A stretch of DNA of 62,741 nt, filler included. It is 5 parts of 5 records of this genome, joined end to end, with 100 filler letters (N's around TTAATTAATTAA, not from the genome) between each part and the next. Parts side by side here need not be neighbours in the genome. Positions count along the whole stretch, not along the records: positions 22,247 to 31,136 come from DRR723986_4308; 4 more parts are not named here. One strand, 5' to 3'. Both the position numbers and the translations under genes were made by a program. The notes beneath the pieces are model-generated. The model saw nothing but the letters and a program-made list of their open reading frames with translations. It ran no database searches and was not told the DNA's origin. Shown in pieces: positions 22,147-57,781 of the stretch (position 1 is the first letter of the stretch; every line of letters starts with the position of its first letter).

Positions 22147-22246
22147 NNNNNNNNNNNNNNNNNNNNNNNNNNNNNNNNNNNNNNNNNNNNTTAATTAATT
22201 AANNNNNNNNNNNNNNNNNNNNNNNNNNNNNNNNNNNNNNNNNNNN
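22147..22246. other. Artificial contig linker
   Basis: N-run + TTAATTAATTAA (stops in all six frames) + N-run. Confidence 0.98.
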
Positions 22247-22366: not shown

Positions 22367-22612
22367 CTAGAGGAGCATTGGCGTTTTGAGCCGGATTGCT
22401 GTTCCTTTGACGTTGTAGCGCCTGGCTTTGCTGAATTTGAGGCAAGCATCGGCCTCTTGGATGGTCAATCCGTCGTTGATGTGGACTTCTGCCTGTTCGA
22501 GCTCTTTAGGTGTGACGACAGGCTTGCATTCGCATTTTGGGCCGTACGTTGCGGCGGCATTCAATCTGGACTGTGTGCGCCCAACGATGAGGTCAAGCTC
22601 GCAATGGGCAGA
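22367..22612 (-). pseudogene. Degraded C-terminal fragment of a serine resolvase/invertase (helix E plus HTH)
   Basis: AHCELDLIVGRTQSRLNAAATYGPKCECKPVVT...HINDGLTIQEA..LKFSK..Y aligns by eye with the resolvase pattern AqFErdLI.ERT.aGL.aA..rGrkgGRkp...GltvrEaa.rLkvSk..lY. Confidence 0.6.
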
Positions 22613-23217
22613 ATCTGGCCCTCGAAAGCGATTTTGCGCTTGTTGTCGAGCGCCACGCTGCGGAAGTGGCCCATGTGCTGCATCTCCTGCCCGACATCGC
22701 TGCTTAGCAGCGTCTCGTAGCTTTCGCGCCCACCCCAGAGCACATAGTTCTCGCCCTTGAGCCTGTGGGTGGCCTCGCGGCAAGACGTCATCGTGGCGGC
22801 CGACCAGGCAAAGAAATTTGGGTCGGGGTTGGCGGCGGCGCCGAGCATAAAACGGCGGTACGAGAAGAGATTGGCGGTGTCCGAGAGCAGGCCGACCTTC
22901 GAGCTTTCCGTCTCTTCTTCAAAGAGAGCGATAGTCGCATCGAAGTTCGCGCGGCTCTCGGCGAAACTCGCGTCATTGGGGTAGAAATTGACGTTGTGCC
23001 AGAGAAAAAACGTCACGCCCAGCAGGTTGGAGAGCTCGAAGGCGACATCGGCTTTGAGCTGCGCGCATGTCTTCCCGCCGGAGGCGCCGCCGGGCCAGGC
23101 GAAACTGTGTCAACAGGCCCCCGCGAAACGCACGTGATCCTTGAGTCGATAGCCCATAACCATCTCGGCGGGATCACAGGTGAGCTTGGACGCGGTGCCG
23201 AAGAAACGGGCCCTTAT
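22610..23217 (-). pseudogene. xylA: Xylose isomerase pseudogene (N-terminal half only)
   Basis: DHVRFAGAC*HSFAWPGG (stop at 23110-23112 replaces a conserved Trp), KADVAFE, TANLFS, GAAANPDP, ENYVLWGGRESYETLL; ATA where the start is expected, internal deletions, truncated before EPKP. Confidence 0.85.
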
Positions 23218-23235: not shown

Positions 23236-24144
23236 TTAGAGCCGGTAGACCCGGCGCGCCGTGTCGGAAAAGATCGCCTGTAGGGCGTGTTGCGACTGGT
23301 CGCACAGCACCTCCTGCAGCTGCTCGAACTGGCGGGATACCGGACAGTTGACGGCCTCAACCGGCAAGTTCGAGCCATAGAGCACCCTCTCCGGCCCGAG
23401 GTGGGTCAGAAGATGCGCCACATGCGGGCGCAGCACTTCTGCGCGCCAGCCTTTGTCGACGGTCCAGAGGCCAGAGAGCTTTACAACCACGTTGGGAACG
23501 TCACTCAAATCCTTGATACCCTGTCGCCAGGCTTGCAGGTTGTGGGGCTGGTCGGGTTCCAGCGTAGCGAAGTGGTTGAGTACGATAGTCAGGTCGGGGT
23601 GGGTGCGGGCAAGCGCGGCCACCTCGTCCAGTTGCTCGGGGACCACAACGCATTCAAGGCAGAGGTCATTCGCTTCCAGCAACGGCAGCATCGCACGGAA
23701 CCTGTCATGTGTCAGGACCCCGGGTCTGTCTGCAACACGCCAGCGGCCCGCCGAATCCCATGCCACGGGTGTTCGAATGCCACGCAAAGCAGGAGATTGC
23801 AGGTGGCCTTCGATCTGCATCTCGGCTCCAGCGGCAGTCAGGTCGACCTCAGCGACGATGGCGGCGGGCCAGCCGCTCTTGTTTGACAATACCTGCAACC
23901 AGAGAGTTTCCTCGACCGGGTCGGCGGCACCGCAATTGGCCTGAACATGAACGCTGGCCATGAGCGGCAGGCCCTCGAAAGCGGCGAGGTATTCGTCAGG
24001 GAGGAAATTCTGGCGGATCGCCTCTTTGTCGCCAAAGCGCGCGGGCGGCGCTTCTGGCGCGAGCCACCGATAAGGAAACCGAGTCAGGTCCCAGAAGTGG
24101 TGATGGGCATCGACTAGCGCGATACCCTCAAGCCATTGCGCCAT
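23236..24144 (-). CDS. Amidohydrolase_2 family protein, sugar-lactonase-like (L-fucono/L-rhamnono-lactonase family)
   Basis: VDAHHHFWD, YRWL, VHVQA, VLNH, VKLSG, YGSNLPV; start overlaps the SDR stop (TGATG). Confidence 0.8.
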   Translation of the reverse strand: MAQWLEGIALVDAHHHFWDLTRFPYRWLAPEAPPARFGDKEAIRQNFLPDEYLAAFEGLPLMASVHVQANCGAADPVEETLWLQVLSNKSGWPAAIVAEVDLTAAGAEMQIEGHLQSPALRGIRTPVAWDSAGRWRVADRPGVLTHDRFRAMLPLLEANDLCLECVVVPEQLDEVAALARTHPDLTIVLNHFATLEPDQPHNLQAWRQGIKDLSDVPNVVVKLSGLWTVDKGWRAEVLRPHVAHLLTHLGPERVLYGSNLPVEAVNCPVSRQFEQLQEVLCDQSQHALQAIFSDTARRVYRL

Positions 24145-24884
24145 CAATAGGTCGCCCGACCGCCCGACAGGTCGAAGACCGAGGCCGTGGTGAAGCTGTT
24201 TTCCTTCGAGCAGAGCCAGGCGATCATTGCCGCCGCCTCGTCCAATTCGAGAAACCGCCCGCGCGGGATCTTCGACAGCATGTAGTCGATATGCTCCTGC
24301 GCCATCTGCTCGAAGATCCTCGTGCGCGCCGCGGCGGGTGTGACGCAATTCACCGCTATGTCCTTGTCGGCCAGCTCCTTGCCTAGCGATTTGGTCAGCC
24401 CGATCACCCCAGCCTTTGACGCCGAATATGCGCTAGCGTTCGGATTGCCTTCCTTGCCTGCGACCGAGGCGATGTTGACGATGCGGCCGTAGCCTTGTTT
24501 GGTCATCGTCGGAACCACCGCGCGGTTCACGTGGAAAGTGCCGAGCAGGTTGATCTCGGTGATCTGGCGGAATTCCTCGACCGGATAATCGGCCAATGGC
24601 CCATTGGATCCGGCGATCCCGGCGGAGTTGACCAGGATGTCGGCGCGGCCGGCGGTGTCGAGCGTGGTCTTCATCGCGGCCTCGACGCTGGACCAGTCCG
24701 AGATATCGACCGCGCAGGCAAAGGCCTTGCCGCCAATCTCTTCCGCGATCTCACGACCGAGCGCCTCATCGCGGTCCCAGATGGCGACGCGGGCGCCGTG
24801 CTTGGCAAGGCGATTGGCGACGGCGCGGCCGATGCCCTGTGCGCCGCCGGTGACGATGGCGGTCTGATTGGTGAAATCGGTCAT
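24144..24884 (-). CDS. SDR dehydrogenase, 2-keto-3-deoxy sugar-acid dehydrogenase (LRA5)-like
   Basis: TGGAQGIG, NSAGIAG, ASVAGKEGNPNASAYSASKAGVIGLTKSLGKELA, FDLSGGRATY. Confidence 0.8.
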   Translation of the reverse strand: MTDFTNQTAIVTGGAQGIGRAVANRLAKHGARVAIWDRDEALGREIAEEIGGKAFACAVDISDWSSVEAAMKTTLDTAGRADILVNSAGIAGSNGPLADYPVEEFRQITEINLLGTFHVNRAVVPTMTKQGYGRIVNIASVAGKEGNPNASAYSASKAGVIGLTKSLGKELADKDIAVNCVTPAAARTRIFEQMAQEHIDYMLSKIPRGRFLELDEAAAMIAWLCSKENSFTTASVFDLSGGRATY

Positions 24885-25954
24885 TCTGCTGCTGCCTTCT
24901 GTGTTTGATTAATCATCTGTTCCGAGCCTTGGGACTGACCCGAGGCCACGATGGCGTGAAGTGTTTCGACGGCACGTGCGCCGACCTCTCCGGGGCTCTC
25001 GTTGCGGCCCTGCCCCAGCGCGATATCTACCAGCCGGTTGGCCGGGCCCTCGCAGCTGTACGTCCAAGCGCCCCGCGGCACTTCGGCCACGCGGGTCTCG
25101 CCCCCGGGAAGCTTGAGCACCAGCCGCTCTGTCTCAATGTCCAGCAGGACAGAGCCCTTGCTGCCGTAAAGGCGGATATCGACCTCGAAGCCGTGGCCGT
25201 CGGGGACCCCACAACTGCCCGAGAAGACGCCGGTCGCGCCATTGGCGAAACGCACGACGGCGGCGTCGTGCAGATCAATGGTCGAAGGCGCCTGGTAGAG
25301 TATCGAGCGCACCGAAGCAGCGCGCAGATCGGTCAGCCAGTAGAGGATGCCGAGTGCGTGGGAGAGCTGGCCATAGGCATAGCCACCGCCTTGATCGGGC
25401 GCCTCCCATGTGCTGTGCTCGGGCTGAATAGCGACGTGCTGCCACTTCGACATGCCGCCGCCGGAAAAGATGCTGCGCGTGAAGGAGGCCATGTGGCAGA
25501 CGACATGCTCGATCTCGCCGATCTCGCCGATCATCTCGCGAGCCTCGTCAAGGCCACGCTTGTAGTTCCAGCCATACGCCACCAGCAGCTCGCGATCCGA
25601 GGCTTCGGCCAGTTGCACCAGATCCCAGGCTTCGGCCGGATCAAGGCACATTGGCTTTTCCACCAGCACATGGCAGCCCTTTTCAAGGAACGCCTTGGCC
25701 TGTTCGTAATGCAGGTTGTGTGGCGACGCGATCACCGCGATGTCGATGTCACGCTCCAGCACCTCGCGCCAGTCCTCGGTGGCGAAGGCAAAGCCGAACT
25801 CTCCGGCGATCAGGTCCAGTTCCTTGCGGCCGAGGCGGCAGACGGAATCGAGCACAACTTCTGCCCGCTTGGCCAGGACCGGGATGTGCATGCGATAGGC
25901 GAAATGCCCGGCACCGATGATAGCGGCGCGGATAGGGCCCTTGGATGAAGTCAT
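24881..25954 (-). CDS. Gfo/Idh/MocA family oxidoreductase
   Basis: AIIGAGHFA, IASPHNLH, HVLVEKPM, GGG...QLSH; 4-nt overlaps with both neighbours. Confidence 0.88.
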   Translation of the reverse strand: MTSSKGPIRAAIIGAGHFAYRMHIPVLAKRAEVVLDSVCRLGRKELDLIAGEFGFAFATEDWREVLERDIDIAVIASPHNLHYEQAKAFLEKGCHVLVEKPMCLDPAEAWDLVQLAEASDRELLVAYGWNYKRGLDEAREMIGEIGEIEHVVCHMASFTRSIFSGGGMSKWQHVAIQPEHSTWEAPDQGGGYAYGQLSHALGILYWLTDLRAASVRSILYQAPSTIDLHDAAVVRFANGATGVFSGSCGVPDGHGFEVDIRLYGSKGSVLLDIETERLVLKLPGGETRVAEVPRGAWTYSCEGPANRLVDIALGQGRNESPGEVGARAVETLHAIVASGQSQGSEQMINQTQKAAAE

Positions 25955-26436
25955 GTGCTTTCCCGGATTTGAAAGTGATAGCCGATATCGTACATCGCGG
26001 CGGTCTCTGCCGTGCCCTTCAGCCGGTTCATCACCAGTTCTGCGGACCGCGCGCCAATGGCGCGGCGCCGCATCCGAACTGTGGTCATTTGCACCGGCAA
26101 GAGCGTTGACAGGCTCAGAACGCCGAAGCCCGAGATGGCCACGCCTCGCGACACGCTGGCGCCGTTCGACAGGCACAGGAGCCTCGCGCCTTTGGCCACC
26201 AGCTCGGAGAGGATCGGAGCGATCACCCCAATCATATCGAACCGCTGAGATTTAAGCGAGCGCGCCGTAAGGTTGGGGTCATAGCCGATCTCTTCGACGG
26301 TGCGCTGGATTTCCGCGCGCGTATCGGCATGCACGGTATCCGGCTGACGCAGGGCGCGGGACACGGTGATTATCGACAGGCCCGGGGCCTGAGAAACGCC
26401 CGTCAGCGTCACGTTCTTGCTGCCATAGTGCGTCAC
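25951..26436 (-). pseudogene. LacI-family regulator with a large in-frame internal deletion (161 aa)
   Basis: HTH VTL..VS..GLS.ITVSRAL, hinge GY.PNLTARSL, IGVIAP, then directly the C-terminal AISGFG...TTV...IG..SA...IREST; about half the normal LacI length. Confidence 0.75.
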
Positions 26437-26524
26437 TTATGTCGCCCTTTGGGCGCTCCCACCGTTCGCGTTACCCCCGAAGCTGCGGCAAGGCCGCGCC
26501 GAAAGGGTCATGCCAGATTGTCAT

Positions 26525-26583
26525 TGACACACGAATAGCACTGGTCATAGTGTCAGTCAATAATGAATGACATACGAACATCA
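26525..26583. promoter_or_regulatory. Two degenerate copies of the TGACATACGTATGTCA motif in the divergent promoter region
   Basis: TGACACACGAATAGCA (26525-26540, 12/16; overlaps a TTGACA -35-like hexamer) and TGACATACGAACATCA (26568-26583, 13/16). Confidence 0.55.
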
Positions 26584-26625
26584 TCGTCATTTTCGCATTT
26601 TGCGGATAACAAGGGGGAGGATCTC

Positions 26626-27942
26626 ATGTCGAATTCAATCAGCCGCCGCAGGTTCTTGGGCACCACTGCCGCCGCGGGCGCCGCGACAGTTCTGTCGGTG
26701 GGCCCGGCGCGCGCAGCCAGCGGCCAAGTTTCGGTCTGGAAGTTCGGTGGCACGCCGCAGGAGGTTGAGGTCTGGGCGCAGCGCAACGACGCCTTTGCAG
26801 GAGCAAACGCCGATATCGACCTGAACTATTCCTACTTCAACGGTCAGATCCGCCGTCAGAAAATCCTCGCCGGGTTCCAGACCAACCGCCTAGCCGACGT
26901 GGTCATCGCTTTCGGCCAGGATATCCCGGAATTCGCCGGTTTCGGCATGATCCAGCCGCTTGACGATATCGCTGGCGACAAGCTGGCCGGCTGGAAAGAG
27001 CGCCTCGTTCCCGAGGTCTACGAATCGGGTGTGCACGAGGGCAAGCTCTATGCCCTGCCGACCTATGTGGACATGGCCAGCTTTCTTGCCATCAACCTCG
27101 ACGCGCTGGAAGAAGCCGGTTTCGACCGCCCGCCGGAAACCTGGGACGAACTGCGTGAATATGCGAAGGCAATGACCAAGCCGGACCGCCCCGGCATCGC
27201 CTTTCCAGCCACCACCGCGCCGGTCGACATCAACATCTTCGAAGGCCTCGCCTATGCCAACGGCGGCCGCGTCTTCGACGAGGAGACCGGCATGGTCACG
27301 CTGAACGATCCCGGCGTCGTCGATGCGCTGCAATTCTACGTCGATCTCATCAAGGACGGCTCTACCCCTGCCGCGACCTCGCTGACCGAGACCTTCTTCC
27401 GCGATACCGCGCAGCTCTTCGGCCAGGGCCGGTCGGCGATGTGGATCGGGCTGTCTTGGCTCAACACGCCCTGGGGCGTCAACGAGGACGTGCGCTGGAC
27501 TGGCGTGCCGATGCCGAAGCCGGAAACCCCTTCGGGCAGCTTCAAGCCGGTGAACGCGATCATGGATGGCACCGCCATGCTGATGGTTTCGTCGAGGTCG
27601 AAGAATCCGGAAGCGGCAATTGAATACCTCGATTTCTGGTCACAGAACGAACAGCTTGAAATCTGGGGCGGACAACCCGAGATCGCCCGCATCCCCGCCG
27701 GCAAGGCCGCTTGGGACAATGCCGAGTTGAAGGAAGCTTGGCCGAACTGGGTCAAGGCCTACGACGAAGGCTCGCTCTTCGAGGGTGGCGCGCCAATGCC
27801 GCGGTTCATCGGCGTCTCGGCCATCGAGAGCGCGCTTGGCACCGCCATCCAGCAGGCCGTCTTGGGACAGAAAACGCCGCAGGAAGCCTTGGACGAGGCT
27901 ACCGCCGCCGCCCAGACCCAGATCGACCTGATCCGCGGCTGA
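26626..27942 (+). CDS. Carbohydrate ABC transporter (CUT1) substrate-binding protein with Tat signal
   Basis: SRRRFL twin-arginine signal, GKLYALP, PPETWDEL, TPQEALD; GGAGG RBS. Confidence 0.88.
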   Translation: MSNSISRRRFLGTTAAAGAATVLSVGPARAASGQVSVWKFGGTPQEVEVWAQRNDAFAGANADIDLNYSYFNGQIRRQKILAGFQTNRLADVVIAFGQDIPEFAGFGMIQPLDDIAGDKLAGWKERLVPEVYESGVHEGKLYALPTYVDMASFLAINLDALEEAGFDRPPETWDELREYAKAMTKPDRPGIAFPATTAPVDINIFEGLAYANGGRVFDEETGMVTLNDPGVVDALQFYVDLIKDGSTPAATSLTETFFRDTAQLFGQGRSAMWIGLSWLNTPWGVNEDVRWTGVPMPKPETPSGSFKPVNAIMDGTAMLMVSSRSKNPEAAIEYLDFWSQNEQLEIWGGQPEIARIPAGKAAWDNAELKEAWPNWVKAYDEGSLFEGGAPMPRFIGVSAIESALGTAIQQAVLGQKTPQEALDEATAAAQTQIDLIRG

Positions 27943-27990
27943 TTCTCCGCCAACTGACTGTAAAGACTTAAAAATAAAGAGGGCCTGACG

Positions 27991-28875
27991 ATGCTGCGAA
28001 GCGATCGTTTTCTGGCGTATGCCTTGATATTGCCCGTGGTGGCCGCCGTCGTGGCGTTTGTCGTCGGGCCCACTTACAACGTGGCCACGCTCAGCCTGAC
28101 CCAGGTTGTGATGGGCATGGAGCGCGGCTTCGGCACGCTCGGAAACTTTCAGGCGCTGGCCGCCGACCCGGTCTTCGGGCTGGTTCTGAAAAACACCGCC
28201 ATCTGGATCCTCGGGGGCACATTCCTTTGTGTCACCGTGGGGCTTGGCGTGGGGACGTTCCTCGCCATCGACAGCCGGATGACCGGCTGGCTCAGGGCGC
28301 TGATCCTGCTGCCCTGGGTGCTGCCCGACGTGGTGACGGCCATGGCGTGGAAATGGATGCTGCACGGACAGGTCGGCATCATTGGCCAGACCTTGCAGGA
28401 CACCGGGTTGACCGAAGGTACGATCTCTTTCCTCGGCGATCCCGACATGGTGATGTGGGTGCTCGTCGTGGTGCTGATCTGGCGCAAGATGCCGCTGGTG
28501 GCGCTGATCCTTTGCGCCGCGATCCGCTCGGTCCCCGATGACCAGATGGAGGCCGCGCGGATGGACGGTGCCAATGCCGTTCAACGGTTCCGCTTTGTCA
28601 CCCTGCCGAACATCGCGTTCTCGCTGACCGCCGTGACCGTGATCTCGATGATCTGGATCACCGCCGAGTTCGCCCTGCCCTGGATCATGACCGGCGGCGG
28701 CCCCGCCAACGCGAGCCAGATCATGGCGACCTACATCTACCAGCAGAGCTTCGAATTCTTCAACTGGGGCGTCGCCTCGGCCATGTCGGTGATCAACCTC
28801 GTCATGCTGGCCTCGATCGTCGCGCTCTACCTCTACGTCAATCGCCGCTCTTGGGCTTCGGAGGGTCAGAAATGA
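27991..28875 (+). CDS. Carbohydrate ABC transporter permease
   Basis: LLPWVLP, EAARMDGA (EAA motif), TGGGP. Confidence 0.9.
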   Translation: MLRSDRFLAYALILPVVAAVVAFVVGPTYNVATLSLTQVVMGMERGFGTLGNFQALAADPVFGLVLKNTAIWILGGTFLCVTVGLGVGTFLAIDSRMTGWLRALILLPWVLPDVVTAMAWKWMLHGQVGIIGQTLQDTGLTEGTISFLGDPDMVMWVLVVVLIWRKMPLVALILCAAIRSVPDDQMEAARMDGANAVQRFRFVTLPNIAFSLTAVTVISMIWITAEFALPWIMTGGGPANASQIMATYIYQQSFEFFNWGVASAMSVINLVMLASIVALYLYVNRRSWASEGQK

Positions 28876-29729
28876 ACGAGCAACCCCGCACCCTCTACTG
28901 GGTCTTCCTCGGCTTCGTCGGCCTTGTGATCTCGCTTTACGTGCTGTTCCCGGTGTTCTGGCTGTTCCTCGCGTCCTTCAAGACGCAGGCCGAGCTGGCG
29001 CAATTGCCGATCTCCTTCTGGCCGGAGGCGCCCACATTGGATGCCTACAAGGCGCTGTTCTCGCCGACGCACCAGAAAGGGCAGCTGCTGGACTGGCCGC
29101 AGTTGATCGGCAACAGCTTCTTCATCGCCATCAGCTCCACCGTGATCGTTTTGGTCTTCGGCACGCTGGCGGGCTACGCCTTTGCCCGGCTGAACTTCCC
29201 GGGTCGCGACCTGATCCTCGGCGGACTGCTGATCAGCCGGATGTTCCAAGGCGCGGCGCTTCTGCTGCCGACCTACCGGCTGATGTCCATGATAGGTCTG
29301 CAGGACAGCCTGATCGGCCTAGTGCTACTCTACTCTGCCTTCGGCCTACCCTTCGCCACTTGGATCATCGCGTCGAGCTTGCGCGAGATCCCGAAGGAAC
29401 TGGAAGAAAGCGCCATGATCGATGGCGCGAGCCGGTTGCAGAGCATGGCCATGGTGGTGTTGCCCTTGGCCACACCCGCGCTGATCACCGCCGCCATGTG
29501 GCACTTCGTCGGCGCCTGGTCCGAGTTTGCCTTTGCCTCGATCCTGCTGGAATCCAACGAAAACAAGACCGTGACCATCGGGTTGGCCAGCTTTGTCGAG
29601 CTGTTCACCCTGGAATTCCAGTATGTCGGCGCCGCCGCGACCATCGTCGCCTTGCCGATCATGCTCGTGTTCTTCTTTGGCCAGCGCTACTTCACTCGTG
29701 GCCTGCTGGCAGGGGCGGTGAAAGGATGA
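28872..29729 (+). CDS. Carbohydrate ABC transporter permease
   Basis: [38 protein letters not shown] overlap with the upstream permease. Confidence 0.9.
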   Translation: MNEQPRTLYWVFLGFVGLVISLYVLFPVFWLFLASFKTQAELAQLPISFWPEAPTLDAYKALFSPTHQKGQLLDWPQLIGNSFFIAISSTVIVLVFGTLAGYAFARLNFPGRDLILGGLLISRMFQGAALLLPTYRLMSMIGLQDSLIGLVLLYSAFGLPFATWIIASSLREIPKELEESAMIDGASRLQSMAMVVLPLATPALITAAMWHFVGAWSEFAFASILLESNENKTVTIGLASFVELFTLEFQYVGAAATIVALPIMLVFFFGQRYFTRGLLAGAVKG

Positions 29730-30880
29730 AGATCACCTCGATTACTGCGCGGGCCGTGGACTGCGGCTTCAATTCCCAGAAGTTGCAAACCAGCCGCGTC
29801 GCCTCGCCCATGTCCCGCTTCGCGCGTTTCGCCGAGAGCCGCGCAAGCTGGATGTGGCCCACGAAAAAGGTCTTCGTCCGGGTGACGGGCGAAGACGGCA
29901 CCACCGGCTGGGGCTGCACCAATGGCGGCGAGATTGTCGAGATGATCGTGAACGCGCATCTCGCCCGGCTGCTAATGGGCGAGGACCTGGGCGACCTTGC
30001 GCTGCTCAATGACCAGATGGCGGCCTCGCTCCTGCCCAACGACCGGTCCGGTTTCGCGATGATGGCGGTGGCGGGCGTGGATATCGCGCTTTGGGACCTC
30101 ACTGCCAAGGCGGAGGATAAACCGCTGGTGGACCTCCTCGGCGGCGCGGGGGGTCACGACCTCCCGGTCTACATGACAACCCCGCGCCCCGAGGCTTTTG
30201 CAAATGGGCCGTACCACGGGCTGAAAGCCGCCGCTCCTTATGGGCCCGAATCGGGGGAAGAGGGCCTGAATGCCAATGTTGCCTTGATGCGCCGTTTTGC
30301 AGAGGCGGCGGGCGAGGCCGTGCCGATCATGATCGACAGCTTCCTTGCTTGGGATGCGGATTACACCCTGCGCTTTGCCGAAGCCGTGGCCGATCTGAAC
30401 GTTACATGGATCGAAGACCCGATCCATCCGCAGGACATAGAAGGATTGCAGAAGATCCGCCGCGAGATGGACCCCGGAATTGCGCTAGCGCTTGGTAACT
30501 TCGCTTTTTCCCGCGCCGATTGCGCCGATCTCTTGCGTGCTGACGTGGTGGGCGTGCTGCAACCGGATGTGGCCTGGGCCGGCGGCATCACCGAAGCGCT
30601 GCGCATCCTCGATATGGCCCAAACCGCGGACGTTCCGGTGATCCTGCACAACACTTGCGAACAGCCTTGGGCGCTGGCCCTGGCCGCGGCCCGGCAGATC
30701 GATGCTCTGGTCGAATGTGTCGACCGGGGCGAGACCTCGACCCTTTACGAGTTGATGGCACCGCGCCCAGACCTTTCCACCGGACGCGTCGCCACCCCTC
30801 GGGATCCGCAGGGCAACCGCCCGCCGGCATTCGTGCTGGAGGCCTTCGGCCCCGCCACACCTGACACCAAGGAAGCATAG
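29726..30880 (+). CDS. Enolase-superfamily (mandelate racemase subgroup) acid-sugar dehydratase, RhmD-like but divergent
   Basis: [61 protein letters not shown]. Confidence 0.8.
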
Positions 30881-30884
30881 ACCC

Positions 30885-31136
30885 ATGGGCTCAGTCGCAC
30901 TCAGAAACATCCGCAAGTCCTACGGCGCCCTTGAGGTGCTTCATGGTATCGACCTAGACATCAAAGAGGGTGAGTTCACCGTCCTCGTTGGTCCCTCGGG
31001 CTGTGGCAAATCCACCTTGCTACGCACCATTGCCGGGCTTGAGACTATCTCCGGCGGCGACATCGCCATTGACGACCGGGTGATCAACGCGCTGGTCCCG
31101 AAAGAGCGCGACATCGCCATGGTGTTCCAGAACTAC
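30885..31136 (+). CDS. MalK/UgpC-type ABC ATPase, 3'-truncated at contig end
   Basis: [27 protein letters not shown]. Confidence 0.92.
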
Positions 31137-31236
31137 NNNNNNNNNNNNNNNNNNNNNNNNNNNNNNNNNNNNNNNNNNNNTTAATTAATTAANNNNNNNN
31201 NNNNNNNNNNNNNNNNNNNNNNNNNNNNNNNNNNNN
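31137..31236. other. Artificial contig linker
   Basis: N-run + TTAATTAATTAA + N-run. Confidence 0.98.
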
Positions 31237-31237
31237 C

Positions 31238-32059
31238 TATGCGCTGAACCCCGATATCAAGGTGATTGCGCCCTGGCGCCTGTGGGATCTGACCAGCCGC
31301 ACGCGGCTGATCGATTTTGCCGAGAAAAATCAAATTCCGATCGCCCGCGACAAACGCGGCGAGGCGCCTTTTTCGGTAGATGCCAACCTGCTGCACACCT
31401 CGTCTGAGGGCAAAGTGCTGGAAGACCCCGCACAAGAGGCGCCCGATTACGTGTATCAGCGCACGGTCAACCCCGAAGATGCCCCAGACCAGCCCGAAGT
31501 GATCGAAATTACCTTTGAACAGGGCGATGCGGTGGCCATCAATGGTGTGGCCATGTCGCCCGCCACAATCCTGACCCAGCTTAACGAATATGGGCGCAAA
31601 CATGGCATTGGCCGGCTGGATTTTGTGGAAAACCGCTTTGTTGGTATGAAATCGCGCGGCATTTACGAAACCCCCGGCGGCACCATCTTGCTAGAGGCGC
31701 ATCGCGGTATCGAGCAAATCACGCTGGACAGCGGCGCAGGCCATCTGAAAGATTCGATCATGCCCCGCTATGCCGAGCTGATTTATAACGGTTTCTGGTT
31801 CAGCCCCGAACGCGAGATGCTGCAAGCGCTGATCGACAAAAGCCAAGAGCATGTCACAGGCACTGTGCGCCTGAAACTGTACAAGGGCATGGCCCGCACG
31901 ATTGGCCGCTGGTCAGACCACAGCCTGTATTCCGAGGCGCATGTGACCTTCGAAGAAGATGCCGGCGCCTATGATCAAAAAGATGCGCAAGGTTTCATTC
32001 AGCTGAATGCACTGCGCCTGAAACTGTTGGCTGCGCGCAATCGCCGCCTGAAAGGCTAA
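31238..32059 (+). CDS. argG: Argininosuccinate synthase, 5'-truncated
   Basis: [57 protein letters not shown]. Confidence 0.96.
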
Positions 32060-32116: not shown

Positions 32117-32821
32117 CTAACACTGCAGTTTTTGCGCAGCCAGCGCGTGGTAATAGGGCAGCGCGGCCTGCGCCAAAGCTGCATTTTCCCCCTCTAACGC
32201 GGGCATTGGCCCCTCGGCTCCGGCAAACCCGGTGGATTTGTGCACCTGGTGATACCAATGCGCCGCCCAAACACCATCAAAGCTGCGCGGCCCTGCGGGC
32301 CAAACCAGCATGTTAGGGTCGAATGCCAGGCCAATTTCAGCGCAAAGCGCCTGTATCATGCCGCCCGGGTTTTCGCGAATGTCGGCACTATCCAGCACGG
32401 GGCCAGGAAAGCGCCGAAAAAACGCCACCTGCTGGGCAAAGCCAATATCAGCCAGGGTTGGGTTTTCGCGTTTGGCCGAATAGCTGGCCACCACCCGCGC
32501 AGGATGGCGGATAAGGTGCACATTCACGCAGCTATCGGCCCAATCCAACGGAAATTGCGGCAGCATATGTAGCGGCATATGCTTCATGTAAAAATGCGCT
32601 TTGTCCCCTGGAATAGGGCCTAAACAGCGCTGCGCCACGATTTCAGGGTTTGTTTCATGCTGGGCCAAAATTTCAGCGGCCATGGGGTGCGCCAGCCCGG
32701 TTTCGGCCAGGTATGGGGCGTAAAACGGCTCGTCCCAGGCCGCGCAATCGGCGCGGTTGGCAAAAGCATACATCATGGCCGTTGAAATATTTCTGGGGCC
32801 AGACCACATAGCGATCCGCAT
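32117..32821 (-). CDS. Sulfotransferase-like P-loop protein (aminotransferase-IV-associated family)
   Basis: MRIAMWSGPRNISTAMMYAF, DEPFY, KHM, LIRHP..V..SY, DGVWAAHWY..V..STGF. Confidence 0.8.
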   Translation of the reverse strand: MRIAMWSGPRNISTAMMYAFANRADCAAWDEPFYAPYLAETGLAHPMAAEILAQHETNPEIVAQRCLGPIPGDKAHFYMKHMPLHMLPQFPLDWADSCVNVHLIRHPARVVASYSAKRENPTLADIGFAQQVAFFRRFPGPVLDSADIRENPGGMIQALCAEIGLAFDPNMLVWPAGPRSFDGVWAAHWYHQVHKSTGFAGAEGPMPALEGENAALAQAALPYYHALAAQKLQC

Positions 32822-32843
32822 ATTTTCGTCCTTTTTTGCCGTA

Positions 32844-33752
32844 TCAGGCGCAGCTGCGCGCGACGAGATCTTTGTAAAGCGCGCGCAACCGTTCGGTGAC
32901 AGGGCCCATGGCACCGGTGCCAATCTGGCGCCCGTCGATTTCAGAAACCGGGGTTTGCGCGCCAAAAGTGCCGGTTAAAAACGCCTCGTCAGCGCCATAG
33001 GTATCAACCAGGCTGAAATTACGCTCGAACACCGGAATGTCGTTTGCGCGGCACAGATCGATCACTTTTTGCCGGGTGATACCATTCATGCAGTAATCGC
33101 CCGTGCTGGTCCAAACCTGGCCCTTGCGCACAATAAAGAAATTGCAGGCGTTGGTGGTATTCACAAAGCCATGCACATCTAACATCAGCGCCTCGTCAGC
33201 GCCGGCCTTTTCAGCGGCGATACAGGCCAGAATGCAATTCAGCTTGGAGTGGCTATTCAGCTTAGGGTCTTGGGTCATGGGCAGCCCGCGCAGATGCGGC
33301 ACTGTGGCCAGGCGAATGGGCCGCGGAATTTTGGGCCGGGAATGTTCGCAGATAATCGCCACCGTCGGCCCAGAGCGCGACAGCGAGGGGTGCTGAAAGG
33401 GCCGCATCTTTACGCCACGCGTCACCATCAGGCGGGCATGGGCATCGGTGTGCATGCCATTGGCGTGGCGCGTGTCTTCCAGTGCTTTTACCACCTGGTC
33501 ACGGGTAAGCCCAATATCCAGATCAATGGCTTTGGCCGCTTCAAACAGCCGGTCCATATGTTCGTCTAAAAACGCCCATGTGCCGTTATACAGGCGCAGC
33601 CCCTCCCACACGCCATCGCCCAGCATGAAACCGCTGTCATACACGCTGACCATGGCCTGTGCCTTTGGCACAACGCGGCCATTCAGCCAGATCTGAATAT
33701 CTTCGTTTCGCGCGTCGTCTTCGGCTTGGTGGGTGGTTACGTGATCGGTCAT
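32844..33752 (-). CDS. Class IV PLP aminotransferase (BCAA/D-amino-acid-like)
   Basis: SVYDSGFMLGDGVWEGLR, HSKLN, ADEALML, GITR, ADEAFLTGT. Confidence 0.9.
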   Translation of the reverse strand: MTDHVTTHQAEDDARNEDIQIWLNGRVVPKAQAMVSVYDSGFMLGDGVWEGLRLYNGTWAFLDEHMDRLFEAAKAIDLDIGLTRDQVVKALEDTRHANGMHTDAHARLMVTRGVKMRPFQHPSLSRSGPTVAIICEHSRPKIPRPIRLATVPHLRGLPMTQDPKLNSHSKLNCILACIAAEKAGADEALMLDVHGFVNTTNACNFFIVRKGQVWTSTGDYCMNGITRQKVIDLCRANDIPVFERNFSLVDTYGADEAFLTGTFGAQTPVSEIDGRQIGTGAMGPVTERLRALYKDLVARSCA

Positions 33753-39824: not shown

Positions 39825-39924
39825 NNNNNNNNNNNNNNNNNNNNNNNNNNNNNNNNNNNNNNNNNNNNTTAATTAATTAANNNNNNNNNNNNNNNNNNNN
39901 NNNNNNNNNNNNNNNNNNNNNNNN
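39825..39924. other. Artificial contig linker
   Basis: N-run + TTAATTAATTAA + N-run. Confidence 0.98.
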
Positions 39925-56244: not shown

Positions 56245-56344
56245 NNNNNNNNNNNNNNNNNNNNNNNNNNNNNNNNNNNNNNNNNNNNTTAATTAATTAA
56301 NNNNNNNNNNNNNNNNNNNNNNNNNNNNNNNNNNNNNNNNNNNN
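56245..56344. other. Artificial contig linker
   Basis: N-run + TTAATTAATTAA + N-run. Confidence 0.98.
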
Positions 56345-57781
56345 GGCATTATCGTCTACCAGGAACAGGTGATGCAGATTGCCCAGGTTATGGCGGGCTA
56401 CAGCCTGGGCGGCGCAGATCTGTTGCGCCGCGCCATGGGTAAAAAGATTGCCGAAGAAATGGCAAAAGAGCGCCCCAAGTTTATCGATGGGGCCAAGGCC
56501 ACCCACGGGGTGGATGCCAAGAAGGCGGGCGAGGTGTTCGACCTGCTGGAAAAATTCGCCAATTACGGCTTTAACAAATCGCACGCCGCGGCCTATGCGG
56601 TGGTCAGCTATCAAACGGGCTGGCTAAAGGCCAACCACCCGGTTGAATTTATGGCCGGGGTGATGAATTGCGATATACACCTGACCGACAAGCTGGCGAT
56701 CTATGCCGAAGAGGTGCGCCGCGGCATGGAAATCACCATTGTGCCGCCTTGCATAAACCGCTCGGCTGCCACGTTTGACGTGCAAGAGGGCTGTTTGGTG
56801 TATGCCTTGGGCGCTCTGAAAAACGTGGGCCTAGAGGCGATGCGCCTGGTTGTGGCGGCACGCGGTGATAAACCCTTTGCCACGCTGTTTGATTTTGCCC
56901 GCCGGGTCGATCTGAAAAAGGTTGGCAAACGGCCATTGGAAATGCTGGCGCGCTCGGGCGCGTTTGACCTGCTCGATGGCAACCGCCGCCGGGTGTTTGA
57001 CAGTCTGGATGCGCTGGTGGCCTATTCGGCGGCGATCCACGAACAAAAAGCCTCGAACCAGGTGTCGCTGTTTGGCGAGGCGGGCGACGACCTGCCCGAG
57101 CCGCGGCTTTCGCCGGTGGATGATTGGATGCCCGTTGACCGGCTGGCAGAAGAACACAAAGCCATTGGTTTTTATCTGTCGGGCCATCCGCTGGATGATT
57201 ATCTGCCCGCGCTAAAGCGCAAAAACATCCTGACGCTTGAGGAAATTCAGGCCAAAGCCCAGCGTGACGGTGCCGCCATCGCCAAGGTGGGTGTGCTGGT
57301 TTCTGGCCTGCAAGAGCGTAAATCAGGCCGCGGCACCCGGTTTTTCCGCATGAACATATCCGACCCAACAGGCCAGGTGGCGGGCATGGTGATGTTTGCC
57401 GATGATTTCGAGGCCACGCGCCGGGTGTTTGAGCAAACCAACCAGGTGGTGATGACCCTAGAGGCGCGCTTTAACGAGGGCCAGTTCGATCCCATGGGCC
57501 GCTCGGTGGCGCCCATGGATGGGGTGGTGGCCGATGCAGGCAGCGCGGGGCTGAAGATTTTTGTCGATGATCCAAAGGCCATCGCCTCGGTTGCCAGCGT
57601 GTTGGAACAGGCCGCCGCCACCGTGCGCAACGCGGGCCGCGGGCCGATACAGTTTTGCCTGATCAACCCGGATCTGCCCGGCGAGGTAGAAATAGATGCG
57701 GGCTGCGAATTTCCCGTGAACCCGCAAATCAAGGGCGCTATCCGCTCGCTGGGCGGGGTGCTTGAGGTGCAAGAAGTTTAG
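56345..57781 (+). CDS. dnaE: DNA polymerase III alpha subunit, 5'-truncated
   Basis: GIIVYQEQVMQIAQ, ADLLRRAMGKK, YGFNKSHAAAY, GFYLSGHPL. Confidence 0.96.
   Translation, partial: GIIVYQEQVMQIAQVMAGYSLGGADLLRRAMGKKIAEEMAKERPKFIDGAKATHGVDAKKAGEVFDLLEKFANYGFNKSHAAAYAVVSYQTGWLKANHPVEFMAGVMNCDIHLTDKLAIYAEEVRRGMEITIVPPCINRSAATFDVQEGCLVYALGALKNVGLEAMRLVVAARGDKPFATLFDFARRVDLKKVGKRPLEMLARSGAFDLLDGNRRRVFDSLDALVAYSAAIHEQKASNQVSLFGEAGDDLPEPRLSPVDDWMPVDRLAEEHKAIGFYLSGHPLDDYLPALKRKNILTLEEIQAKAQRDGAAIAKVGVLVSGLQERKSGRGTRFFRMNISDPTGQVAGMVMFADDFEATRRVFEQTNQVVMTLEARFNEGQFDPMGRSVAPMDGVVADAGSAGLKIFVDDPKAIASVASVLEQAAATVRNAGRGPIQFCLINPDLPGEVEIDAGCEFPVNPQIKGAIRSLGGVLEVQEV

Follow-up and report, generated by a model that had tools for sequence, protein, structure and literature searches.

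We identify, in a 62.7-kb window made up of five draft contigs, a locus that couples an ABC importer to a rhamnose-type oxidative route and whose central enzyme carries a discrete, invariant active-site change. Sequence comparisons indicate a real, conserved variant of the known kinase-free L-rhamnose pathway type and not a categorically new system. The nearest annotated relatives of four of its enzymes belong to the L-rhamnose pathway, its dehydratase appears to fall inside the radiation of L-rhamnonate dehydratases (RhamD), and its transporter is 29–42% identical to the ABC system of the Haloferax rhamnose cluster. We propose, with slightly better than even confidence, that the locus serves to import and oxidatively degrade L-rhamnose or a modified or related 6-deoxy-L-hexose; in our view a modified or related sugar is more likely than plain L-rhamnose. 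An earlier sequence-only reading of this DNA had put forward a pathway of a new kind for a different sugar that it left unnamed, and had held that clustering of the enzymes with characterized L-rhamnose pathway members would speak against it. About half of that clustering is what we find, in the four enzymes and in the affiliation of the dehydratase with RhamD, and the new kind of pathway therefore gives way to a variant of the rhamnose-type route. The substrate may still be a different sugar, a point that the sequence-only reading had overstated.

Organization of the locus

The locus is confined to one short contig (positions 22247–31136 of the window), whose end at 31136 is an assembly break followed by a run of N from 31137. 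Two divergent, translationally coupled operons occupy 23236–31136, with the following features:

23236–24144, minus strand: amidohydrolase of the Amidohydro_2 family (cog3618 type), 302 aa (Pfam PF04909, E 4e-31)
24144–24884, minus strand: SDR-family protein, 246 aa (Pfam adh_short, E 1e-58)
24881–25954, minus strand: Gfo/Idh/MocA oxidoreductase, 357 aa (Pfam PF01408 and PF22725)
25951–26436, minus strand: remnant of a LacI-family repressor, 161 aa (Pfam LacI helix-turn-helix at residues 10–55 and a Peripla_BP_3 tail)
26524–26543 and 26565–26585, no strand assigned: promoter/operator region with two LacI-type half-palindromic sites, upstream of the binding-protein gene
26626–27942, plus strand: solute-binding protein of CUT1 type with a twin-arginine (Tat) leader, 438 aa (Pfam SBP_bac_1, E 2e-34; TAT_signal)
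27991–28875, plus strand: ABC permease 1, UgpA/MalF-like (Pfam BPD_transp_1; NCBIfam UgpA-like)
28872–29729, plus strand: ABC permease 2, MalG-like, 285 aa (Pfam BPD_transp_1), with ATGA overlaps on both sides
29726–30880, plus strand: enolase-superfamily enzyme, here enolase 1, 384 aa (Pfam MR_MLE_N and MR_MLE_C), inside the transporter operon
30885–31136, plus strand: N-terminal 84 residues of a MalK/UgpC-type ABC ATPase (Pfam ABC_tran), cut by the contig end

The four minus-strand open reading frames, from the LacI remnant through the Gfo/Idh/MocA and SDR genes to the amidohydrolase, are chained by ATGA or TGATG overlaps. The plus-strand operon begins after a 189-bp intergenic region and runs from the binding protein through both permeases and enolase 1 to the partial ATPase gene. 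Over the two operons such overlaps occur at five junctions, and a 4-nt spacer lies ahead of the ATPase gene. The parts of a CUT1 carbohydrate importer are all represented (SBP_bac_1, two BPD_transp_1 and a MalK/UgpC ATPase), the ATPase by its 84-residue fragment. No kinase gene is present among the locus genes in 23236–31136, and the logic is oxidative and kinase-free. The sequence-only reading had described both operons, their families and the lack of a kinase, and all of this holds at the positions it gave; every gene it listed is there, and the LacI remnant that heads the minus-strand operon was missing from its list.

Conservation in marine Alphaproteobacteria

A profile of the enolase 1 alignment, scanned over one genome per species, returned 76 loci, 38 of which are orthologous (L001–L038) and encode enolase 1 proteins of 57–87% identity. 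The carriers are marine Alphaproteobacteria, mostly Roseobacteraceae with several Hyphomicrobiales-type lineages, and Granulosicoccus. Because the same gene order recurs in these 38 loci, which come from different species-level genomes, the arrangement is far beyond chance, and the co-occurrence that the sequence-only reading called for is borne out. The conserved locus comprises about 13 genes in all, of which the contig holds the first nine (the 5′ two-thirds).

Genes were counted in the 38 loci by tblastn with identity and coverage thresholds. Enolase 1 and permease 2 occur in all 38, the binding protein, permease 1 and LacI in 37 each, the ATPase and the Gfo/Idh/MocA enzyme in 35 each, the amidohydrolase in 31 and the SDR in 29. 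Several loci are short contigs (2.6 kb for L016, 9.3 kb for L036), so some of the absences reflect truncation. A full-length ATPase ortholog of 354 aa is found at L001:11160–12224. Downstream of the ATPase, the relatives carry a second enolase-superfamily enzyme (enolase 2, 387 aa; 30 loci), a DHDPS-family protein (30 loci) and a RhaM-like mutarotase (29 loci). An FAH-family hydrolase is encoded in 18 loci, either downstream of the ATPase or between the amidohydrolase and the SDR (L017, L023–L025). The final hydrolase or aldolase, which the sequence-only reading had tentatively placed beyond the contig break, thus has counterparts there in the FAH-family and DHDPS-family genes of the relatives. 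A PRK-like gene near the Granulosicoccus loci proved to be a pantothenate kinase and irrelevant.

Relationship to known oxidative routes

The original work on the nonphosphorylative LRA route for L-rhamnose was reportedly done on Sphingomonas SKA58 and is among the references of PMC6336799 and PMC11199699. With the Sphingomonas route (LRA1–3, 5 and 6) the locus shares a lactonase, an enolase-superfamily dehydratase, an SDR 4-dehydrogenase and an FAH-family hydrolase, the order of steps that these families imply and the lack of a kinase. A plasmid of S. parapaucimobilis carries rhmD, FAH, SDR and amidohydrolase genes in the LRA arrangement, and identities to this cluster are 33.5% for the dehydratase, 55% for FAH, 52% for the SDR and 30% for the lactonase. 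As a yardstick, the Sphingomonas and Haloferax rhc clusters share 35% identity in the dehydratase, 40% in the hydrolase and 23% in the lactonase. The locus differs from the Sphingomonas route in its first dehydrogenase (Gfo/Idh/MocA here, SDR there), importer (ABC here, MFS there), regulator (LacI here, IclR there) and dehydratase active site (Asn-Phe here, Glu-His there). Three proteins of its relatives are additional to the Sphingomonas set: another enolase-family enzyme, a DHDPS-family enzyme and the RhaM-like protein.

The amidohydrolase is probably a sugar-lactone hydrolase. Its best NCBIfam match is L-fucono-1,5-lactonase (NF052480; 109.5 bits, cut-off 400), its sole PDB relative is the L-fucono-1,5-lactonase 4DLF (E 5e-15), and its 30% identity to the amidohydrolase of the Sphingomonas LRA-type cluster extends over the full length. 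The SDR is predicted to be a 2-keto-3-deoxy-acid 4-dehydrogenase of LRA5 type, as the sequence-only reading had suggested. It is 52% identical to the Sphingomonas SDR placed after rhmD-FAH and 32% to the other SDR there, and its closest PDB entries are 9JVE, 9KQ1 and 6D9Y (E 1e-90 to 1e-85; 6D9Y, E 1e-85); no curated model of LRA5-type dehydrogenases matched it. One study gives 6D9Y as the structure closest to L-2-keto-3-deoxyrhamnonate (L-KDR) 4-dehydrogenases, at 51–54% identity (PMC11199699). The FAH-family hydrolase of L001 reaches 415.7 bits on the NCBIfam model of 2,4-didehydro-3-deoxy-L-rhamnonate hydrolase (NF053535, cut-off 500) and matches the L-2,4-diketo-3-deoxyrhamnonate hydrolase 8GSR at E 6e-91. 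The RhaM-like protein reaches 51.2 bits against a cut-off of 99.6. For the Gfo/Idh/MocA enzyme, the nearest structure is the scyllo-inositol/L-glucose dehydrogenase 6KTJ, at only E 5e-17.

The importer finds its likeness in the pHV3 cluster of Haloferax volcanii (rhcB–F, as annotated in NC_013964), where a CUT1 ABC importer likewise stands amid oxidative rhamnose enzymes. Identities are 29% for the solute-binding protein (E 1e-49), 33–34% for the permeases, 42% for the ATPase, 42% for the hydrolase and 32% for the dehydratase. A mutarotase gene and a Gfo/Idh/MocA gene lie nearby in Haloferax, as in this type of locus; that Gfo gene and the one at 24881–25954 gave no blastp match at E 1e-3. The Haloferax cluster is archaeal and differs in its KDR dehydrogenase, a 344-aa non-SDR protein, in its IclR regulators and in a dehydratase that keeps Glu-His. 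The binding protein in the window has a best PDB match of only E 5e-21 and an SRRRFLG twin-arginine leader that scores 21.9 bits on TAT_signal, just below the Pfam cut-off of 22.7. We place its start at the ATG at 26626, within a longer open reading frame that opens at 26563; the resulting 438 aa agree with the Jannaschia annotation.

The oxidative L-fucose route follows the same chemical logic, with a cog3618 lactonase (BmulJ_04915/4DLF) and an L-2-keto-3-deoxyfuconate (L-KDF) 4-dehydrogenase (PMC11199699). It differs from the locus in that the lactonase match is weak, the SDR here is of the L-KDR and not the L-KDF type, and no FucD-type dehydratase is present. We found no description of the cluster in the literature searched. 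In the portions available, a paper on ulvan use by Celeribacter (PMC13770419) concerns a different locus, and the rhamnose-regulon paper by Rodionova (PMC3870299) does not cover the cluster.

A RhamD-like enzyme with an altered active site

The best matches of enolase 1 are L-rhamnonate dehydratases, including the PDB RhamD 3FXG (E 5e-52), and on the NCBIfam L-rhamnonate dehydratase model (NF011968) it scores 205.8 bits against a cut-off of 393. RhamD binds its metal through three carboxylates, Asp/Glu/Glu, at the ends of strands 3–5, and uses a His-Asp dyad (strands 7/6) as the sole acid/base catalyst. Enolase 1 keeps the metal ligands Asp204 and Glu230, has Asn258 at the third position and retains an Asp281-His308 dyad that is invariant in an 18-sequence alignment and in all 38 orthologs. 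Asn258-Phe259 replaces the Glu-His of RhamD in 38 of 38 orthologs, and also in L039, compared with 0 of 27 RhamD-type comparators. The dehydratase is thus as atypical as the sequence-only reading had supposed. More distant enolase matches within the loci have Glu-His in 16 of 19 cases, and among library representatives spanning the site, 77 of 112 have Gly-Glu-His and 7 of 112 Gly-Asn-Phe. As the third metal ligand and its neighbor have both changed, the reaction or the substrate of enolase 1 may differ from that of L-rhamnonate dehydratase. An Asn metal ligand occurs in glucarate dehydratase.

We compared 40 members of the Asn-Phe family with the 27 RhamD-type proteins, residue by residue. 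The changes that separate the groups are Glu to Asn and His to Phe (27/27), Glu231 to Asp (25/27) and His318 to Ala (20/27). At columns conserved among the comparators, the family has exchanged Glu for Asn, two His for Phe/Ala, Trp for Phe and Thr for Leu, giving a more hydrophobic site. At these columns we looked for newly acquired Lys or Arg residues able to bind a sulfate or carboxylate and found none; we therefore dropped the argument for an anionic substituent.

Phylogeny tentatively places enolase 1 in a derived clade within the RhamD radiation. In a quick maximum-likelihood tree (IQ-TREE, 91 rows, a single long outgroup, no bootstrap) it falls in an 11-row clade (SH-aLRT 96) containing nine GNF, one GNY and one GEH sequence. 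This clade is nested in a 43-row clade (SH-aLRT 99) that includes the Sphingomonas rhmD, with the Haloferax rhcD further out, and the Asn-Phe label requires three changes on the tree. The family is narrow: among 1.84 billion representatives, one exceeds 50% identity and 80 match with E up to 1e-30. In L047, L049 and L056, homologs of the Gfo/Idh/MocA enzyme at 43–47% identity likewise have ordinary RhamD-like genes nearby, which indicates that the pairing of Gfo and RhamD is older than the Asn-Phe family.

Rhamnose operons and sulfatases as neighbors

On a plasmid of Jannaschia sp. M317, as in L028, a canonical phosphorylative rhamnose operon made up of an FGGY kinase gene, rhaM and rhaQPTS comes immediately after the locus. 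In M317 genes for a DeoR regulator and RhaEW come next, and L007 has RhaEW on the upstream side of the locus. These adjoining genes tie the locus to rhamnose metabolism.

A sulfatase without a signal sequence is encoded inside the minus-strand operon in 6 of the 38 loci (L010, L014, L015, L018, L034 and L038), where it separates the amidohydrolase gene from that of the SDR or the Gfo enzyme. It scores 372.8 bits on the choline-sulfatase model TIGR03417 (cut-off 433) and matches PDB 6FNY at E 1e-76, and the loci that bear it have no FAH gene within 10 kb. In L056, an unrelated sulfatase gene overlaps the gene of a Gfo enzyme 43% identical to ours, beside a RhamD-like gene. A 385-aa protein of seemingly unknown family beside some of the sulfatases turned out to be a weak SBP-like protein.

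The sulfatases raise the question of whether the substrate is a sulfated or otherwise O-substituted rhamnose, for instance L-rhamnose-3-sulfate derived from ulvan. Such a sugar would be imported intact, desulfated by the in-cluster cytoplasmic sulfatase in the Hyphomicrobiales-type loci or at the enolase step, and finished by the LRA5- and LRA6-type enzymes. The choline-sulfatase-like gene within the operon, the arrangement in L056, the marine habit of the carriers (Granulosicoccus among them), the adjacent canonical rhamnose genes and the remodeled leaving-group side of the enolase 1 active site are all consistent with this idea. We nevertheless judge it unlikely: 32 of the 38 loci lack a sulfatase within 10 kb, the enolase 1 site has become more hydrophobic with no basic residue gained at the comparator-conserved columns of the 40-versus-27 comparison, the loci showed neither an ulvan lyase nor a GH105 gene, and no paper in the literature searched links such enzymes to sulfated rhamnose. 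A more specific version strikes us as a long shot: the Asn-Phe enzyme would itself act not as a dehydratase but as an eliminase, taking off a group at O-3 (the sulfate, for instance, once ulvan-derived L-rhamnose-3-sulfate has been oxidized to the aldonate), and enolase 2 would then handle the unsubstituted acid. If true, it would give marine Roseobacters a sulfatase-independent use of a sulfated sugar freed by polysaccharide degraders.

A second enolase-superfamily enzyme and its DHDPS-family partner

No enzyme of the locus is better conserved than enolase 2, which in its 30 loci is 79–100% identical to the L001 copy. Its closest solved relative is the Agrobacterium enolase-superfamily protein 1RVK/4HCD/4MMW (E 4e-73), which carries the PDB name 'isomerase/lactonizing enzyme' and was reportedly deposited as a D-glucarate dehydratase; a literature search by the codes 1RVK and 4HCD gave nothing relevant, and an ESM Atlas look-up returned generic enolase clusters only. 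Plasmid-borne relatives of enolase 2 share only about 38–41% identity with it. In Palleronia they adjoin kdgD and a gene for an NADP aldehyde dehydrogenase, and the enolase 2–DHDPS pair recalls this pairing with kdgD. The DHDPS-family protein is far from curated families. Its best NCBIfam match is 5-dehydro-4-deoxyglucarate dehydratase (92 against a cut-off of 278), and its best PDB matches are L-2-keto-3-deoxyarabinonate (L-KDA) dehydratase and the aldolase YagE (E 1e-23 to 1e-21). A further relative of enolase 2, at 38% identity, is found in L081 (Haloferax volcanii pHV3, 90848–107975), where its neighbors include a sulfatase-like gene, genes for a GH28 protein and an SMP-30 lactonase, and an Opp-type ABC system; these genes are all generically annotated and lie about 25 kb from the annotated Haloferax rhamnose cluster.

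This pair could mean that the locus acts on a uronic or aldaric acid, or on two substrates. The Gfo/Idh/MocA enzyme would then be a uronate or aldose dehydrogenase, enolase 2 and the DHDPS protein an aldarate dehydratase and a 5-dehydro-4-deoxyglucarate dehydratase, and the rhamnose-like enzymes would serve a second substrate. The company kept by enolase 2 relatives (kdgD and NADP aldehyde dehydrogenase in Palleronia, sulfatase and GH28 in Haloferax), its own conservation, the best NCBIfam match of the DHDPS protein and the resemblance of LacI to the sugar-acid-sensing GntR/IdnR point in this direction. We regard the proposal as quite improbable, given how far below its cut-off the DHDPS match falls, the best PDB matches of that protein to L-KDA dehydratase and YagE, and a conserved gene set that holds no alpha-ketoglutarate semialdehyde dehydrogenase; a mutarotase and a CUT1 sugar importer also suit a neutral sugar better.

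Substrate and proposed route

Plain L-rhamnose is the nearest competitor of a modified or related 6-deoxy-L-hexose. The locus would then combine a high-affinity importer with the LRA diketo-hydrolase route, LRA1 would have been replaced by the non-homologous Gfo/Idh/MocA enzyme, and the exchange of Glu-His for Asn-Phe would leave specificity unaffected. The rhamnose-pathway relatives of the four enzymes, the apparent nesting of enolase 1 among RhamD proteins, the RhaM-like gene in 29 of 38 loci and the resemblance of the transporter to that of the Haloferax rhamnose cluster make this possible, and we doubt it mainly on the grounds that follow, several of which weigh against our own proposal as well. 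The active-site change is present in every ortholog and in none of the comparators, with a possible change of reaction or substrate. No curated equivalog cut-off is reached, whether for RhamD, fuconolactonase, the LRA6-type hydrolase or RhaM. Enolase 2 and the DHDPS protein are strongly conserved, and a plain rhamnose route offers them no role and leaves them unexplained. Since ordinary rhamnose genes adjoin the locus, with the canonical transporter, mutarotase and kinase operon in two genomes and RhaEW in a third, a second plain L-rhamnose system would be redundant in these three. The in-operon sulfatase of 6 of the 38 loci also weighs against it. No LRA1-type SDR is present in the locus, and the assignment of the Gfo/Idh/MocA enzyme as a first-step sugar dehydrogenase is conjecture on our part. 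FAH is absent from 20 of the 38 loci, and tblastn found the ATPase C-terminus, enolase 2, DHDPS, FAH and mutarotase on none of the other contigs of the window.

For L-rhamnose or a modified or related 6-deoxy-L-hexose, we propose the following route, in which the families, gene order, conservation and similarities are those described above and every catalytic role, like the substrate, is a prediction drawn from them. The Tat-exported CUT1 binding protein and the ABC transporter, whose family is clear, would import the sugar, a presumed ligand, and in the relatives the RhaM-like mutarotase would equilibrate its anomers. The Gfo/Idh/MocA enzyme would oxidize C1 to give a lactone, which the amidohydrolase would open. 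Enolase 1, which retains the Asp-His dyad and two of the three metal ligands, would remove the C3 substituent to yield a 2-keto-3-deoxy acid. The LRA5-like SDR may then oxidize C4, and the LRA6-like FAH enzyme, beyond the contig break, may split the diketo acid into pyruvate and L-lactate, as suggested by the 52–55% identity of the two to LRA-cluster enzymes. Enolase 2 and the DHDPS protein could form a further branch, consisting of a second acid-sugar dehydratase and an aldolase or dehydratase.

Algal sugars are consumed on a large scale by bacteria of the Roseobacter group, for most of whose sugar importers no ligand is known. The locus is compact, widely conserved and tractable, as several carriers are cultured type strains. 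Identification of its substrate would assign functions to two enolase-superfamily families, one Gfo/Idh/MocA family and one binding protein, and could reveal scavenging of deoxy or modified sugars from algal polysaccharides. Should the substrate be plain L-rhamnose, the gain would be one of ordinary annotation only.

An apparently truncated LacI repressor and its probable operators

The LacI orthologs are 339 aa long, and by tblastn the remnant matches only their residues 6–86 and 253–339. The gene has an in-frame internal deletion in which about 525 bp of L029 are missing (blastn), equivalent to ortholog residues ~87–252. The helix-turn-helix and the C-terminal end are retained, and most of the effector-binding domain is gone. 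A genuine deletion would probably leave the locus derepressed or constitutive in this strain; the apparent loss may instead be an assembly error. LacI is most like the sugar-acid sensors GntR/IdnR, below their NCBIfam cut-offs.

An alignment of eight intergenic regions (including L001, L003, L004 and L029–L032) contains two conserved operator-like blocks. The first overlaps a TTGACA, and the consensus of the second is a perfect palindrome, ATGATATACGTATATCAT. The copies at 26524–26543 and 26565–26585 are more degenerate than the consensus of the relatives, and no exact inverted repeats were found in the intergenic region. A TGTCA..TGACA pattern was considered as an operator and set aside, as it is not conserved in the relatives. 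In the relatives, the LacI repressor would control the importer operon through the two palindromic operators; in the present genome its effector domain appears to have been lost.

Other genes in the window and the related loci

In 5 of the 38 loci a DUF2264 protein is encoded within 10 kb downstream (L001:16949–18829, L021, L030, L031 and L032); its companions in L001 are an Opp-type ABC ATPase and a phytase-like esterase. The literature searched yielded no paper mentioning DUF2264. At the lower-GC start of the contig (22247–23235), just downstream of the amidohydrolase, lies a fragment of a xylose isomerase gene (22561–23016, minus strand). It covers positions 96–230 of 439-position xylA models (E 6e-43, far under the cut-offs), and no counterpart was found in the related loci. 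The frames flanking it have no matches, so it looks like a decayed pseudogene.

The remaining contigs of the window carry housekeeping genes. The joins, at which genes are cut, are N44-TTAATTAATTAA-N44 linkers at 22147–22246, 31137–31236, 39825–39924 and 56245–56344, and contigs that are side by side in the window may lie apart in the genome. The next contig holds a gene for a Sulfotransfer_5-domain protein (32117–32965, minus strand; E 2e-89), which overlaps the end of a class IV aminotransferase gene and is, as far as can be told, unrelated to the locus. Besides the ABC ATPase gene, two genes are cut at contig joins: the C-terminal part of argininosuccinate synthase lies at 31262–32059 and a fragment of DNA polymerase III alpha at 56369–57781.

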